A stretch of DNA of 64,000 nt from a virus (taxonomy: Duplodnaviria > Caudoviricetes). Where the stretch lies: IMG/VR virus record IMGVR_UViG_3300027708_000029, positions 1-64,000 of that record. One strand, 5' to 3'. The notes below the pieces were generated by a model. That model did no database searches and was not told the DNA's origin. It was given only the letters and a program-made list of their open reading frames with translations. Every line of letters starts with the position of its first letter. Position 1 is the first letter of the stretch. Position numbers and translations under genes: made by a program. Positions 38,393-44,504 of the stretch are shown here, one piece after another.

Positions 38393-38420
38393 ATTATAGA
38401 CCGAGAGGAGCCAGCGTCAA
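38393..38420 (-). promoter_or_regulatory. Sigma70-type promoter for ssb
   Basis: TTGACG-16 nt-TATAAT. Confidence 0.7.
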
Positions 38421-40048
38421 GTCTTAGGAATATACGTCTTTTCAACTATTAACGAATCACCAGACTTGGCTCTGTTTCCTTTAATAATGATTACATTACC
38501 ATCAAATAAAATATTTCGATAAGCCTTATATGCTTCTGGAAAGAACACAACAGAGTCTATTACTCCTGTACCATCACTCATAGTAACAAATGCCATCTCT
38601 TGACCGGGAGTCTTACCAGATTTAGTTTTAGTAACACCCACATTCTCTATCTCTCCACATAAAATAATATTATCTTTAAGAGTAGTATTCTTAAAATCTT
38701 TACAAGTTGTATTAGTCATTGTAATATCATACATATCAACTTTAGAACAGGTAATACTGCATCCTAAGAAAGCATCTTCTGCATCAGAGATCCAGTCTGG
38801 ATTATCTTCCAAAGAATATGGGGGTTTATTATAGCTGTTAATTAAATCAAGTATGATACTTTTCCTGTTCTTGTTAGATTTACCATTATGATACAAATCA
38901 TATAAGGCATCTCCAATAGATTTATATTGATGCAAGTTGGCTAGGATGAAATCTGATTCTTTTTTTGTTAATTCAGACACTAAACCAAATTCAAATAACA
39001 TACTTGTTCTTTGTTTACCCAAATAAGAAACAGCACCACTTTGAATCAAAGCTTTGGCCGATGTAGAATTGATATTTATCAAAACCTTCATCAGCATTTC
39101 AACCCAATTCATAGTGTCAAAATCTAGTTTTTTATCCGTTTTAATTTTAATCAATTTATCAAAAACAGATTGTCCAAACCCTTTAATATCTGTTAATCCA
39201 AAATAGATCTTGTTGTCTTTTAAGATAAATAGTTGATTTAGATTCCTAATATCAGGTATACAGACAGGAACATCCATCTCATTAGCATTTTGCACTAACT
39301 CTTTGATTTCTGCTTTAGGATCAATTTTATCTTTAGCAAATCTCAAATAGGCTGCAAAAAAGATTTTTGGAAAATGAGCTTTTGTATATGCTGATAAATA
39401 ACTATTAATAGCATAACTAACAGCATGGGATTTATTAAAAGAATATCTTTGAGATTTTTCAATCCAGCCGAAAATTTCTTCTGCTTGAGAAGTAGCTACT
39501 GTTCCTATTTTTTCTGTACCTTCTAAGAACTTAATTTTAATCTTAGCCATTTCTTCTGGTTTCTTTTTACCAATGGCTTTTCTTAACATATCTGCTTCTT
39601 GAAGATCAAAGCCAGCTACAATCTTAGCGATTTCCATAGCTTGTTCTTGATAAATCATTTCCCCATAAGTTCCCTTTAAAATAGGTTCTAAAGAGGGATG
39701 ATAATAATCTACAGACTCCTGACCATTCTTCTTATCTATAAAATGATTGGAAACTGATTTACCGTCTCTAAAAGCTTCCAAGCATCCTGGTCTCATAATA
39801 CTAATCAATGCAGAAAGCTGTTCTATATTCTCTGGCTTTAATTTTTTGGCCATAGATTTACCAAGTCTAGATTCCAATTGAAAACACCCTTTAGTATTTC
39901 CATCTGAAATTAAATCCCAAGTCTTCTGACACTCCAAACTAATCTCTTCTATTTTTGGATTAAATTTAAGAGTCATTCTGTCTTTGTCTTCATGTTCAGA
40001 CAGAATATCAAAAGAACAACCGCAACTATATTGAAATTTTTTAGGCAT
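38417..40048 (-). CDS. dnaE: DNA polymerase III alpha, C-terminal half (fingers/HhH/OB)
   Basis: GCFQLES, RPG, IYQEQAM, LRKAIGKK, YSFNKSHAVSY, MAFVTMSDGTG. Confidence 0.92.
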   Translation of the reverse strand: MPKKFQYSCGCSFDILSEHEDKDRMTLKFNPKIEEISLECQKTWDLISDGNTKGCFQLESRLGKSMAKKLKPENIEQLSALISIMRPGCLEAFRDGKSVSNHFIDKKNGQESVDYYHPSLEPILKGTYGEMIYQEQAMEIAKIVAGFDLQEADMLRKAIGKKKPEEMAKIKIKFLEGTEKIGTVATSQAEEIFGWIEKSQRYSFNKSHAVSYAINSYLSAYTKAHFPKIFFAAYLRFAKDKIDPKAEIKELVQNANEMDVPVCIPDIRNLNQLFILKDNKIYFGLTDIKGFGQSVFDKLIKIKTDKKLDFDTMNWVEMLMKVLININSTSAKALIQSGAVSYLGKQRTSMLFEFGLVSELTKKESDFILANLHQYKSIGDALYDLYHNGKSNKNRKSIILDLINSYNKPPYSLEDNPDWISDAEDAFLGCSITCSKVDMYDITMTNTTCKDFKNTTLKDNIILCGEIENVGVTKTKSGKTPGQEMAFVTMSDGTGVIDSVVFFPEAYKAYRNILFDGNVIIIKGNRAKSGDSLIVEKTYIPKT

Positions 40049-40745
40049 GAGATGTTGGTGATTGAAATGAGTCCTTAAACTTAATCTTATTTCCTAGGTT
40101 ACGATGTAGTCTCATAAAACGAACCAGAATTTCTGCACAATCCTTAACATCTTTGAGAGCATCATGGGCACCCTCTTTATTAATACCAAGATAATCTCTC
40201 AGAGTATCTAAAGAAAGATTTTTTAGATCGCTATTGTTTTCAAACCAATAGAAAACTAAATTCATAATATCTAATACATCTCTTGGATAAAAAATATCAC
40301 TTCTATCTTCTTTATTAGTATTACCATATTTGCGACTAAGTCTATCAATAATTGGTAGGTCGAACCTATTAATATTATAGCCAGCGGCAATAGGGGCACT
40401 AAATTGGCTCTTCTTACTAGACCTGCTATGGTGCATAGTCAAATAATTTGTAAATAACTTCCATGATTGATCTTGAGAGGGATATTTCTTCCACTCTGCT
40501 AAAATAGCCTCTTTTGAAGAACCTCTTACTTTAGCATGAAAATCTAATATGTCTGTAGTATATTGGTAATCTTCATCATTTGCCAAAACTTCTGGTTTAA
40601 AAAAGATATTAAATTCAGAATTGGGAACAATCTCTAATTTCAATGGATCAATAATCACTGCGGCAATCTGAACAGGACTACAAGACTTTGGGTCAGAGCC
40701 ATCTGTTTCAAAATCAAACACACAAATTTTGTTATAGTTAATCAT
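40041..40745 (-). CDS. dnaQ: DnaQ/epsilon-like 3'-5' exonuclease (DEDDh)
   Basis: VFDFETDG, AGYNINRFDL, AHDALKD. Confidence 0.9.
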   Translation of the reverse strand: MINYNKICVFDFETDGSDPKSCSPVQIAAVIIDPLKLEIVPNSEFNIFFKPEVLANDEDYQYTTDILDFHAKVRGSSKEAILAEWKKYPSQDQSWKLFTNYLTMHHSRSSKKSQFSAPIAAGYNINRFDLPIIDRLSRKYGNTNKEDRSDIFYPRDVLDIMNLVFYWFENNSDLKNLSLDTLRDYLGINKEGAHDALKDVKDCAEILVRFMRLHRNLGNKIKFKDSFQSPTSHA

Positions 40746-40936
40746 TCGGTGGTCTCAACCTCTACTTCTATTAATGGTAGAACCTGAATCTTTTGTTCTG
40801 GATTGTCTAATCTAGCAGCATTTATAACTGTACAACAACTAATTCTTTGTTCTTCAGTCTTAGTATACTTATTAAGTTCAAATGTAAATACCTTACCAAT
40901 AGCTAAATCCATAAATTTAATCTTTTGGGTTGCCAT
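40742..40936 (-). CDS. Small hypothetical beta-rich protein
   Basis: Fills the gap between dnaE-N and dnaQ with coupled overlaps; an AAAGGAG RBS precedes the ATG at 40936. Confidence 0.6.
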   Translation of the reverse strand: MATQKIKFMDLAIGKVFTFELNKYTKTEEQRISCCTVINAARLDNPEQKIQVLPLIEVEVETTE

Positions 40937-40938
40937 AA

Positions 40939-42832
40939 TCAATCTCCTTTTGATAAAATGTCTTGAATAGTCATGATCTTATCTAACATTGCCACGCCAA
41001 GAATATCAAACTTGATAATACCTAACGCTTCTAGGTCTTGCATCTCCATGCCAGCTATAAGTTGGTCATTTTTTGAATCATATACCATAGGACACAGAGT
41101 ATTTAATGGTTGAGCACTAATTGCAATACCAGCCGCATGTTTGGACTGATTAGACTTAGTACCTTCTAATCTAATAGCCTGTTCAAACCTTTTGGCAAGT
41201 GGTCCCTGCAATTCATTTTTTTCATCTATATAGCACCATTCTTTCAGTTTATCTGGCTCATTTTCTAAAGCCCACCGAATAATAGATGCTTCGCCGGTTT
41301 CTTCTTTCATTTCTTGAAGATCATCTGCAATTTTAGCTTCATCTGGAATACTTTTAGTAATCTTATTCATTTCATCAAAGGATATATTACCATAAACCCT
41401 TAATACGTCCTTAATGGCACCACGACCCTTAATAGTATTAAATGTAATCATTTGAGAAACCTTATCAGCCCCATAACACTGCTTAATATATTCAATTACA
41501 TTTTCTCTTTTGTTGATAGGTACGTCTACGTCAATATCAGGCATAGAGATATGATCTTTGCTATTTCTTCCAGCATTATAAAATCTATCAAACAATAAGC
41601 CATATTTAATAGGATCAATACTAGTAATACCAATTAAATAAGAAACTAGACAACCAGCAGCACTTCCTCTTCCTGGTCCCGGAAGCCAGTTATTTGTTCT
41701 AACATAATTCACAATATCCTGCACAATTAAAAAGTAACTAGAAAGATCTGCTCCTTGTAGAACCTCTAATTCGTACTTAATTCTATTAACATAATCATTT
41801 TGAAGATCTTTATCTATAACATTAGCAATTTTATCTCTCCAACCATTACGACATAACTGCCTTAAATATTCATCTGGATTTGCCCCATCTGGACAAGAAA
41901 AGGGAGGTAAATGTGGCTTATCTAAGATGTTGTAGTTTTCACATAATGAATCTACTAATTTAGTATTTTCCATTTCTTCTTCTGTATGAAAATGACCCAT
42001 TTCTTCTGGAGATAAGATATGGAAGTTGTCGGATGTAAAAAAGCACCCAAGAGGCACCTCCTCATCGTTACTAATCTTCCTGCTGATCTCTGGGAAGGTC
42101 GTTTTTAAATTATTACAGAGAAGCACCCTTTGATCTACAGCATCCTCCTTACGGCAATAGTGAGCGTCTGGTGTGGAGATGATTTTTGTGTTGGTCATTT
42201 TGGCCAAATCTCTCATAGCACCAGTCAAAACTGTTTGGATAGGAGAATTGGCCGAATCCATTAATTGTGCTTCTAAAAAGAAATTTTCTTTACCAAAAAC
42301 ATCTTTAAGTTTACCAATTTGATCAATACCTATATTTTTCCAGTCGCCAAGTAATTGATTATCAACACTAATCTTATCTGCCAAATAGGATCCAGCATGA
42401 CCACAAAATCCAATAATATTATTATTACAATATTGTGCAAGAGTCTCTATATTTAGTCTTGGTTTATGATAAAAATGATCGGGTTGATTAGACTCAGAAA
42501 CAATTCTAATAAGACTCTTCCATCCCTCGTAGTTCTTGGCTAGAATAACAAAGTGAGTTAGGTCTTTATTTTCTTTTGTTTTAATCTTAGGATCTTGATC
42601 ACAAATATAAATCTCACACCCTAAAATAGGTTTAATACCCTTCTTCTTCATTTCTGTATAAAATTTAACTGATCCAGCAATATTACCATGATCAGTCAAT
42701 GCGCAAGAAGTTGCACCTATTTCCTGACATCTTTCAGCAATAGTTCTCGGTTGCGATAGTCCATCCAAAAGTGAGTACATAGCCCACCTAAGAATGGACA
42801 TGCAGAGGCACATATCCTCTAGTCATGTCCAT
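40939..42832 (-). CDS. dnaE: DNA polymerase III alpha, N-terminal half (PHP plus palm); reading frame interrupted by a 10-nt insert at 42781-42790
   Basis: AAGGAG RBS, ATG at 42832, MDMTRGYVPLHVHS-TAG; main frame MYSLLDG, ALTDHG, GRGSAAG, PDIDVD, KFDILG. Confidence 0.9.
42794..42832 (-). promoter_or_regulatory. mRNA stem-loop spanning the dnaE leader, directly 5' of TCT-TAG
   Basis: ATGGACATG pairs with CATGTCCAT (9 bp) and AGAGG with CCTCT (5 bp) around a 7-nt loop. Confidence 0.7.
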
Positions 42833-42873
42833 ATCTAATTTTCTCCTTATTTCGTTGTTCTAACCAAAAATAT

Positions 42874-43914
42874 TTATACGGTGCCGGGTGCTTTGTAGTG
42901 ACCTATACTATAGCCGGGAGCTTGATACTTGTCAATGACAGCTTTCATCCCAGTTGTGTCTATATCATGTTTAACTTGTTCGCACTTTGTCATACATTGG
43001 TCTTTAGCTGTTAGTTGACCATCTCTATATTCTGTTAATGGTTGTATTGAACTATTAGCAAATGTACTTTTCCCAAAGTGGCATAACTTACTGCATTTCC
43101 AACTTTTATTTAGTTGTGGCTTTTGAGTATTCTTTATAGTCTCAAATTTTTGTTTCAACATGATTTCTGTTTTGTATAGATCTGTTTTATCAAAACAAAT
43201 AGTAAATGCTCCACCATCATTGATGAAATTAATAGATATCATTACGTGTTCGATCTCTGGGTACATATGCTGAATAGCATAGTGATATATTCTTAATTGA
43301 GGATCATTTTGTAATTTTTCTAAAGTTTTTTCTTCTCCAGTAGCCCAGTCTAATCTTCGTCCTGTTTTCCAATCAATAACTTCTAGAGTATTGTTATTGA
43401 CTTTGGTAATAAGATCAATAGTGCCTTTTATAGCAAGATTTCCTTCAAGGATTCCATCTTTGGTTTCATATCGGTATGATGACCAGGGTTTCTTAATCTC
43501 AAGATCAAAGCGTTGTTCTGGCTGAACGATATGTCTATTCCTAGGATCAAACATACCCTTATTATATTCTAAAGCTTTATTAATCCATGCATGACAATCT
43601 TTATGATCTTTTGGTTCCCAAACATGATGAGTGAACTGAGAAGTATAATATTCATATACTTGATCAGTTATTTTTTTGATACTATAATTATTAATGTCTA
43701 CTTTTCCGACAACATCATCCTCAAAAATTGGACTATTGTTTTGGGTATTTAGTTTAATAAATGCTAAGATTTCTAAAGCCTTATGACAAATAGTTCCTTT
43801 GTCTGCTTTTTTATTTGATGGAGATCTTAAACCAAGGATATACTCAAAAAAATATTGCTGTGGACACATAGAGTGTGTGCCATAAGAACTACTTCTTAGA
43901 TATGTAATTATAAT
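42874..43914 (-). CDS. PD-(D/E)XK Cas4/RecB-like exonuclease; probable non-AUG start
   Basis: GTICH..LE, GTIDL, VIDWKTG, QLRIY; Cys at the N-terminus and C-terminus; the frame extends upstream as IIITYLRSSSY, providing the usual N-terminal S-x-S strand. Confidence 0.85.
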   Translation of the reverse strand: MIITYLRSSSYGTHSMCPQQYFFEYILGLRSPSNKKADKGTICHKALEILAFIKLNTQNNSPIFEDDVVGKVDINNYSIKKITDQVYEYYTSQFTHHVWEPKDHKDCHAWINKALEYNKGMFDPRNRHIVQPEQRFDLEIKKPWSSYRYETKDGILEGNLAIKGTIDLITKVNNNTLEVIDWKTGRRLDWATGEEKTLEKLQNDPQLRIYHYAIQHMYPEIEHVMISINFINDGGAFTICFDKTDLYKTEIMLKQKFETIKNTQKPQLNKSWKCSKLCHFGKSTFANSSIQPLTEYRDGQLTAKDQCMTKCEQVKHDIDTTGMKAVIDKYQAPGYSIGHYKAPGTV

Positions 43915-44504
43915 GTGAATATTCCTTTTTCTTTTAAGAAAGCTACTATTAATTCTGACTGTTGGAAAATATTTAATCTATCATTTTGAACAAATGAATC
44001 AAACTTCCACGGAGAATATTTTTCTGGATCTAGCGCTGTTTCGCTTGGATGATCTGAATGATATGGATTTCTAGTAAGTTTTATTACTAGTCCACCAACA
44101 GCTTGAATAGCTTCCACTTCATTGGGAAATCTGCAATCAGCTATAATAGCCAAATCTGGTTTTTCATTCTTTATTCTGTTAATAGTAGCACTAGTCCATA
44201 CATCATTTTTCATTTTACGAAATAAATCAGTACCAACAAATTGCATAACTTCTCTAGCTGTGAGATTTTTACCTTCCCATGAAATATCTGTTTCTGTATT
44301 CTTATCCGTATCTTCTCCGTAACATTGCTGATAAGTTAATCCAAGTATATTTATACATATTTCTTGTTTGAGTGGATCAGCAAAATTATATATCTTAACA
44401 GAACGATCTTCTCCTACATTAGCTTTATAATAACCCAAAACAGCTTCTGCACAGGTTGTTTTACCGGATTGTTTTCTACCAGCGAACGCTATAATCTTGG
44501 TCAT
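43908..44504 (-). CDS. Deoxynucleoside monophosphate kinase
   Basis: GRKQSGKTT, FADPLK, REVMQFVGTD, DCRFPNE, HPSETALD. Confidence 0.9.
   Translation of the reverse strand: MTKIIAFAGRKQSGKTTCAEAVLGYYKANVGEDRSVKIYNFADPLKQEICINILGLTYQQCYGEDTDKNTETDISWEGKNLTAREVMQFVGTDLFRKMKNDVWTSATINRIKNEKPDLAIIADCRFPNEVEAIQAVGGLVIKLTRNPYHSDHPSETALDPEKYSPWKFDSFVQNDRLNIFQQSELIVAFLKEKGIFTL

Follow-up and report, generated by a model that had tools for sequence, protein, structure and literature searches.

The dnaE gene of an uncultured lake phage is interrupted close to its 5′ end by ten nucleotides (nt), which begin with a stop codon and which the translating ribosome probably passes over. The window considered here is the whole stretch of 64,000 nt at positions 1 to 64,000 of the IMG/VR virus record IMGVR_UViG_3300027708_000029, a record of 131,248 bases rated as 95% complete. 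The preferred reading of the locus is a programmed 10-nt hop from the codon TCT to the triplet GCT over the stop codon TAG. The hop probably takes place within a nuclease-derived cassette, the nuclease gene of which has been lost in this phage.

On the minus strand, the locus consists of the sequence AAGGAG, 10 nt, ATG, 14 codons in total, TAG, GTGGGCT, and ATG-TAC-TCA, which opens the motif MYSLLDG. The codons of the dnaE leader (ATG GAC ATG ACT AGA GGA TAT GTG CCT CTG CAT GTC CAT TCT) are translated as MDMTRGYVPLHVHS and are followed by the stop. The frame starting at 42780 (ATG TAC TCA CTT TTG GAT GGA) encodes P0001, a protein of 613 amino acids (aa), in which Pfam recognizes the PHP domain (PF02811, 3.5e-31) and the Pol III alpha palm (PF07733, 8.5e-73). 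The PHP match of P0001 begins only at profile position 8, while that of the uninterrupted relative L008, which has its own LHCHS, begins at position 2. The leader therefore encodes the missing first strand with the HxH motif. Two open frames thus specify one protein, and a poorly decodable A-site codon, the stop, directly follows the proposed take-off codon. An earlier note on this DNA had pointed out that the removal of exactly 10 nt restores the PHP motif. Every base which it quoted from the minus strand is present, and its suspicion about the annotated start was justified, as the listed 624-aa open reading frame (ORF) at 40939-42813 opens with MCLCMSILRWAM, from an ATG which lies within the leader in another frame.

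The insert is a genuine part of the DNA, because a 950-nt contig of the independent freshwater run X3, spanning 42417-43366, is identical to the window (0 differences, 0 gaps) and because 75 dnaE loci of IMG/VR are interrupted at the same codon. An assembly error, which the earlier note had considered, is ruled out by these two observations. The contigs of run X4 break over the site, ending at 42710 and restarting at 42914, and this hole proves nothing.

The relatives were collected by a protein search with the part after the gap as the query, from which the leader was excluded. It gave 134 pattern matches, of which 130 encode relatives, and 80 loci were kept. The insert, to which such a search is blind in the leader, is present in 25 of these 80 loci and absent from 55. 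The insert-free loci read through the site, an example being MKNYTPLHCHS-M-YSLLDG. Exactly one codon separates HxHS from [YFHM]S[LM][LM]DG in all 55 of them, and their dnaE start abuts or overlaps the stop of the upstream PD-(D/E)XK nuclease gene. In each of the 25 insert-bearing loci, the insert occupies the same codon position, TAA or TAG directly follows a Ser codon TCT or TCC, and the leader starts with MD... or MG... and ends with Y-x-P-L-H-V-H-S. To judge from this pattern, the leader is under protein-level constraint. The stop-led insert with covarying stems, for which the earlier note suggested looking in related dnaE 5′ ends, is thus a recurrent feature. The uninterrupted relatives, which it regarded as evidence against recoding, also exist; since they coexist with many insert-bearing ones, the reading is not refuted by them.

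Two pattern scans of IMG/VR extended the collection. The first gave 75 matches, 73 of which are dnaE cassettes. The second was anchored on helix H1, described below, with the next codon left free; its 82 matches comprise 70 with TAA or TAG, 2 with TGA, and 10 unrelated sequences, and a sense codon after TCY occurs in none of the 72 dnaE matches. Both scans fixed the take-off codon as TCY, while the protein search left it free; all 75 cassette loci show TCT or TCC at this position, and so do the 25 loci from the search not fixing it. The stop is TAA in 27 and TAG in 23 of the 50 distinct cassettes, with TGA in 2 further loci (L202 and L203). Isolated phages gave only one 77-nt blastn match, in Bacillus phage G, and tblastn identities of at most 34%, hence no cultured relative. 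Prokaryote genomes (596 Gb) gave 22 pattern matches, among which only L187 fits the covariance model of the cassette. This cassette lies on an 8,130-base contig binned with a metagenome-assembled genome of Chitinophagia, which either points weakly to a host or reflects faulty binning; the strong Shine-Dalgarno (SD) sequence AAGGAG calls for caution over the hint.

The lengths of the gaps exclude the simplest explanation. Gap and structure counts relate to 74 sequences (50 distinct cassettes), the gap being counted from the stop through the triplet preceding the resume codon. The gap measures 6 nt in 1 distinct cassette, 8 nt in 3, 9 nt in 9, 10 nt in 18, 11 nt in 18, and 12 nt in 1, and 27 distinct gap sequences occur. 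As these lengths cover all three frames, a single simple frameshift is ruled out. An alternative genetic code or a suppressor tRNA was likewise rejected, given the differing frames and the lack of a suppressor among the 10 tRNAs of the phage. Translation of the gap by any means would add 2-4 residues to a motif with invariant spacing in the 55 uninterrupted relatives.

All gaps end in accordance with one rule. Reading on from the stop, the earliest triplet to match the take-off codon TCY is, in 50 of 50 distinct cassettes, the one directly preceding the resume codon. This proposed landing triplet is a cognate Ser codon TCN in 31 of them (TCT 17, TCA 11, TCC 3), and no earlier TCN follows the take-off codon in any of the frames. 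In the remaining 19 (ACT 10, GCT 8, GCC 1), it is the earliest NCY and matches the take-off tRNA at two of three positions. The GCT of the window, already proposed in the earlier note as a two-thirds landing match, is consistent with this rule. To go by the sequences, the rule describes what a P-site tRNA-Ser sliding from 5′ to 3′ would meet first. One cassette, L139, reads TCT TAA TCT, the classic form of a stop-hop.

The RNA of the cassette is folded around the gap. The 74 nt from the ATG to GGATGGAC have a folding energy of -27.4 kcal/mol, compared with a mean of -17.0 (standard deviation 2.7) for 200 shuffled sequences, none of which is as stable (z -3.9). The same overall fold is found in every distinct cassette, and its helices are conserved. 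Helix H1 is formed by ATGGACATG, which contains the start codon, and CATGTCCAT, which carries the H-V-H codons; it encloses an inner stem-loop and ends at the base directly preceding the take-off codon. The 39 nt upstream of TCT fold on their own into the stem of 9 base pairs with an inner stem of 5 described in the earlier note (-19.0 kcal/mol). The 5′ arm of helix H2 begins in the stop codon, its 3′ arm consists of the (Y)-S-L codons, and the landing triplet lies at the stem-loop junction. The motif AGGTGG, which had been taken for an SD-like element, is this 5′ arm; it is not conserved, and the relatives show AACGA, AGCGA, or AGAGA in its place. An alternative helix, H3, was predicted by RNAalifold from a MAFFT alignment between GTCCATTC and the L-D-G-L codons in GGATGGAC. 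H1 and H3 share GTCCAT and are therefore mutually exclusive.

The MAFFT alignment gave only H3, and a model-based alignment was required for H1 and H2. In the latter, 87.1% of the cells are paired as modelled, compared with 32-51% when the partners are slid by 1-3 columns. Eight pairs are changed on both sides, and the observed covariation was reached by none of 500 shuffles. H1 is paired in 99.1% of cells, with double changes in 2 of 9 pairs, and H2 in 89.3%, with double changes in 4 of 7. The inner stem aligns poorly (62.3%), yet each sequence folds some inner stem. The arms of H2 can also be read from the raw sequences independently of any alignment, as TAGAGAA/TTCTCTA, TAACGA/TCGTTA, TAGCGA/TCGCTA, and AAGTGA/TCACTT. 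The stop itself covaries with its partner (TAG with CTA, TAA with TTA or CTT, TGA with CTC). In the TGA cassettes L202 and L203, the pairing GAGTG/CACTC is kept, and the paired Leu codon is now CTC. The support for H3 is of another kind, namely conservation of synonymous sites: 42 of the 50 distinct cassettes contain GGATGGAC exactly, and so do 19 of the 26 insert-bearing loci compared with 4 of the 55 insert-free ones.

The covariance model, with which the search was repeated at E 1e-10, has one match in the window. A first model search had given weak reverse-strand matches in 13 relatives, and the plus strand at 42794-42838 shows a mirror-image mini-ORF of 14 codons, which is an artefact. 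Both result from H1 being an ATG...CAT palindrome. A genome-wide scan for start-codon hairpins followed by a stop revealed no further copies of the device: it gave the cassette, its mirror image, and 2 others, where 2.1 are expected from shuffles. One of these 2 is a mini-ORF of 21 codons at 120100-120165 (minus strand) of the phage's own genome, the start of which pairs with the 8 nt preceding its last codon, and this is probably nothing.

The distribution of the insert points to a mobile origin. On a maximum-likelihood tree of 56 distinct N-part proteins (20 insert-bearing rows), the insert label changes 9 times, at least 7 of the changes being forced by well-supported branches, and the insert-bearing rows are more clustered than in any of 500 shuffles. 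In L065 and L067, an extra ORF (253 and 238 aa) lies between the PD-(D/E)XK gene and dnaE, while none of the 55 insert-free loci has an ORF at this site. The ORF matches PHROG families of endonucleases and HNH endonucleases (phrog_3322, 1.4e-22; phrog_374, 3e-19), and tblastn relates it to phage genes annotated as HNH endonuclease, with 36-42% identity over about 65% of its length. It has no Pfam match above the cut-off and no sequence match in PDB. Its last codons overlap the SD sequence and the start-codon arm of dnaE. A scan for this nuclease tail found 13 loci (L157-L169), 5 with a full-length gene, 3 with 106 aa, 4 with 73 aa, and 1 with 40 aa. These lengths form a series of decay from 238-253 through 106 and 73 to 40 aa, in which the 3′ end is always kept. 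In the window, the 17 nt AATAAGGAGAAAATTAG (42850-42834, minus strand) are identical to the 3′ end of the HNH gene of L164, and the tail alignment has a local score of 45 compared with a maximum of 31 in 500 shuffles. Judged by this match, about 17 nt of the tail are all that is left of the HNH gene in the window. The cassette lineages show raised identity over just the first 30 nt past the Y codon (0.77 vs 0.67), so the shared module ends at about GGATGGAC; a longer co-conversion tract was rejected, as identity is not raised beyond these 30 nt. Together, the scatter on the tree and the link with the HNH gene indicate a mobile-element origin; nothing indicates a control of the polymerase level, which the earlier note had envisaged.

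The programmed hop would proceed in the following way. Ribosomes would start at the ATG at 42832, synthesize the leader peptide, and stall once the Ser codon TCT occupies the P site and TAG the A site. The peptidyl-tRNA-Ser would then release the mRNA, the mRNA would slide by 10 nt, and the tRNA would re-pair with GCT via the second and third positions. Decoding would restart at the ATG at 42780, giving a product ...PLHVHS-MYSLLDG... with an intact PHP motif. H1, re-forming behind the ribosome, would draw the mRNA onward over a distance close to the gap length, H2 would impede the access of the release factor and present the landing site, and H3, as the alternative partner of the 3′ arm of H1, would keep the start codon open before translation. 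Pairing of the mRNA leaving the ribosome is proposed to drive forward bypassing in the available text of bioRxiv 10.1101/2024.12.09.627546, and such a role may fall to H1. The cassette would have arrived together with a free-standing gene for an HNH homing endonuclease that had entered the space from the PD-(D/E)XK gene to dnaE, an event documented in part, and the HNH gene would later have been deleted in the phage of the window. By analogy with T4 MobA and gene 60, the gap probably protects its carrier from the nuclease.

A further-reaching proposal is conceivable but doubtful, namely that the cassette is a portable, self-contained "spring-loaded" RNA device, in which refolding of the mRNA alone drives a hop of 6-12 nt. 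Before translation, GTCCAT would pair downstream in H3, leaving the start codon open, and the first ribosome would melt H3 and H2. At the stop, GTCCAT would re-pair with the start-codon arm behind the ribosome, and the H1 formed in this way would drag the mRNA forward, at most by one stem length, and shut the start codon to the next ribosome. The hop would thus occur 14 codons into the gene without a nascent-peptide signal.

Several points weigh against the programmed hop. The case for it is a comparison of DNA sequences; the metatranscriptome runs X15 and X18 cover only 43617-44000, which leaves room for a removal of the gap at the RNA level. With only 14 residues in the nascent chain, a nascent-peptide signal cannot work as it does in gene 60, and short peptidyl-tRNAs tend to drop off. 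The GCT of the window matches the take-off codon at only two of three positions, as is the case in 19 of 50 distinct cassettes. Part of the sequence was preset in both pattern scans, the pair counts come from an alignment fitted to the model, which favours structure, and the tree is a quick maximum-likelihood version. Finally, H3 has no covariation support because it hardly varies.

One rival reading is termination followed by reinitiation, the leader being released at the stop and the N-part starting at the ATG at 42780, with a leader that is dispensable or acts in trans. The window lends itself to such an explanation, with an ATG right after the gap and AGGTGG 3 nt upstream, and 23 of 49 distinct versions offer an in-frame ATG or GTG at a distance of 3-12 nt upstream of the Y codon. 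However, the downstream frame has no ATG, GTG, or TTG in 22 of the 49, and in 4 more the sole ATG lies 36 nt upstream, in the out-of-frame leader. The relatives do not conserve AGGTGG, the PHP residues YxPLHVHS are retained in the leaders of all 25 cassettes found blindly, the PHP match lacks its first positions without the leader, and the landing rule is left unexplained. Reinitiation is therefore unlikely, above all as a general mechanism. Lower still is the probability of a frame-specific mixture of recoding events, in which gaps of 10 nt would be crossed by a +1 shift, those of 8 and 11 nt by a -1 or +2 shift, and those of 6, 9, and 12 nt by readthrough of the stop. In the window, where the +1 frame is open, it would yield HVHS-RWA-MYSLLDG, and +1 shifts are classically promoted by an A-site stop. 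Yet the 10-nt gap occurs in only 18 of 50 distinct cassettes, so three mechanisms would be needed within one homologous cassette. Each of them would add 2-4 residues to the motif of fixed spacing, the tRNA-Ser on UCU would presumably be unable to re-pair on CUU, the phage encodes no suppressor among its 10 tRNAs, and the gap nucleotides vary as helix partners and not as codons. Among the options listed in the earlier note, the comparative data thus favour the hop and speak against the +1 frameshift and reinitiation as general mechanisms.

The remaining explanations are very improbable. The gap could be cut out and rejoined, or edited, in the RNA before translation, and its position between two helices as well as the short RNA coverage of the region are compatible with this. 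An excision of 6-12 nt matches no known splicing system, however, and the excised length varies while the helices are constant; moreover, a stop and a take-off-like triplet at the ends of the gap are what translation needs, not cutting. It is equally improbable that the gap is a scar, which inactivates the PHP leader or the whole N-part and is tolerated by the phage. Although the cassette probably came with a selfish element, all 26 cassette-bearing N-parts are intact (>500 aa), the helices and the stop are kept by compensatory changes in at least 9 lineages, and no other polymerase family was found in the genome.

The elements of the cassette and the neighbouring genes are listed below.

Table 1. 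Features of the dnaE locus in the window.
Feature	Position	Strand	Basis
Shine-Dalgarno AAGGAG of the leader	42843..42848	-	sequence
Start codon and 5′ arm of helix H1 (ATGGACATG)	42824..42832; ATG 42832-42830	-	sequence, fold
Inner stem-loop of the 5′ hairpin (AGAGG ... CCTCT)	42804..42820	-	fold
3′ arm of H1 (CATGTCCAT; H-V-H codons)	42794..42802	-	fold, alignment
5′ arm of alternative helix H3 (GTCCATTC, includes GTCCAT)	42799-42792	-	RNAalifold
Proposed take-off codon TCT (Ser14; S of PHP motif HxHS)	42791..42793	-	sequence, relatives
Stop TAG; first codon of gap, part of H2 5′ arm	42788..42790	-	sequence
Coding gap TAGGTGGGCT, 10 nt	42781..42790	-	sequence, relatives
Proposed landing triplet GCT, end of gap	42783-42781	-	sequence
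Resume codon ATG (x of HS-x-YSLLDG)	42778..42780	-	relatives
Helix H2: AGGTGGG 42789-42783 with CTCACTT 42775-42769, loop CTATGTA	42769..42789	-	fold
3′ arm of H3 GGATGGAC (codons L-D-G-L); excludes H1	42759..42766	-	RNAalifold
dnaE N-part body (PHP, Pol III alpha palm; 613 aa and stop)	40939..42780	-	Pfam
dnaE N-part, listed 624-aa ORF	40939-42813	-	ORF list
66-aa ORF between the dnaE parts	40742-40942	-	
DEDDh-type exonuclease gene between the dnaE parts	40041-40745	-	
dnaE C-part (finger, HhH, OB domains)	38417-40048	-	domains

The dnaE gene is encoded as two pieces without an intein (window 38417-42813, minus strand). The same N-part is present in 18 of 18 relatives inspected, and the gene order is alike wherever the fetched DNA reaches far enough. 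A search of the 131-kb genome (95% complete) gave no match to the PolA or PolB family. According to ARAGORN, the phage has 10 tRNA genes and a tmRNA (tag GKTSLALAA), located at 102082-102431 and 126494-130251 of its own genome. One of the genes encodes a tRNA-Ser with the anticodon ACT, and neither a UCN-reading Ser tRNA nor a suppressor was found among the 10.

The cassette can be regarded as a miniature analogue of T4 gene 60 and MobA with a much shorter hop, which would mean that coding gaps are tied to homing endonucleases outside the T4-like phages as well. With covarying helices, each of the three stop codons, gaps of six different lengths, and landing matches of graded quality, its natural versions, at least 50, offer a ready mutational series on the release and landing of the ribosome. 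There is also a consequence for annotation, as gene callers misplace the start of the only polymerase in a large group of freshwater phages, in which it is interrupted by the cassette.

Two kinds of programmed bypass in phages were met in the literature searched, that of gene 60 and that of the phiHau3 terminase, and no paper on a bypass in dnaE was found there. One known likeness is the low-level "stop-hop", reportedly described in Escherichia coli by Weiss et al. in 1987, in which the tRNA re-pairs on a matching codon just past the stop. The cassette of L139 has exactly this form. Such stop-hops are inefficient and unprogrammed, whereas dedicated covarying helices surround the dnaE site. Programmed +1 frameshifting of the prfB type likewise takes place at an in-frame stop in the A site early in a gene. 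Unlike prfB, the dnaE cassette has neither a slippery P-site codon nor an SD sequence 3 nt upstream, its gaps are not all +1, and TCT followed by T offers no +1 re-pairing.

The terminases of phiHau3, a Streptomyces phage, and of prophages resemble the cassette in scale. In the available text of PMC10732093, a gap of 10 nt in the large terminase of phiHau3 and gaps of 7 nt in two prophages follow the codon UUA, and the junction peptide of the 10-nt bypass was confirmed by mass spectrometry in E. coli. As in dnaE, a very short gap breaks a conserved junction, RNA structures on both flanks place the landing codon nearby, and frameshifting was rejected since extra residues would enter the conserved junction. 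In contrast to dnaE, where the cassettes carry TAA, TAG, or TGA, the trigger described in that text is a sense codon that is rare and decoded by a regulated tRNA. It deals with 3 genes, compared with at least 50 distinct dnaE versions, and it reports no link with a nuclease.

A further parallel is T4 gene 60. According to the available text of Manning and Atkins (bioRxiv 10.1101/2022.08.31.505936), the bypass belongs to the MobA HNH element, its insert protects against nicking by MobA, the bypass often persists after the nuclease gene has been lost, and the A-site codon of a bypass is a stop or a hungry codon. The dnaE cassette shows the same decay of a linked HNH gene with the putative bypass kept, the gene being adjacent in 5 loci and shortened in 8. 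The extra ORF was compared only with gp60.1, the MobA remnant of T4 (the mobA gene of which is defective), and no BLASTP similarity to it was found (E 1.5). In both systems, the insert lies within a highly conserved motif of an essential replication enzyme, the interrupted gene being dnaE here and not the topoisomerase (Topo II large subunit). The gap in dnaE measures 6-12 nt and not 50, and it lies at codon 13-15, so that the nascent chain is very short. The 5′ helix of the dnaE cassette, unlike that of gene 60, holds the start codon and has an alternative downstream partner. Other parts of the arrangement are shared. In both, the take-off codon runs directly into a stop, and the resume codon comes right behind a landing triplet that matches fully or nearly. 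The stop lies in the 5′ arm of the take-off stem-loop, which is H2 in dnaE, while in the T4 record (GAT GGA TAG CC..GGCTATC) the 5′ stem arm holds the stop together with part of the take-off codon.

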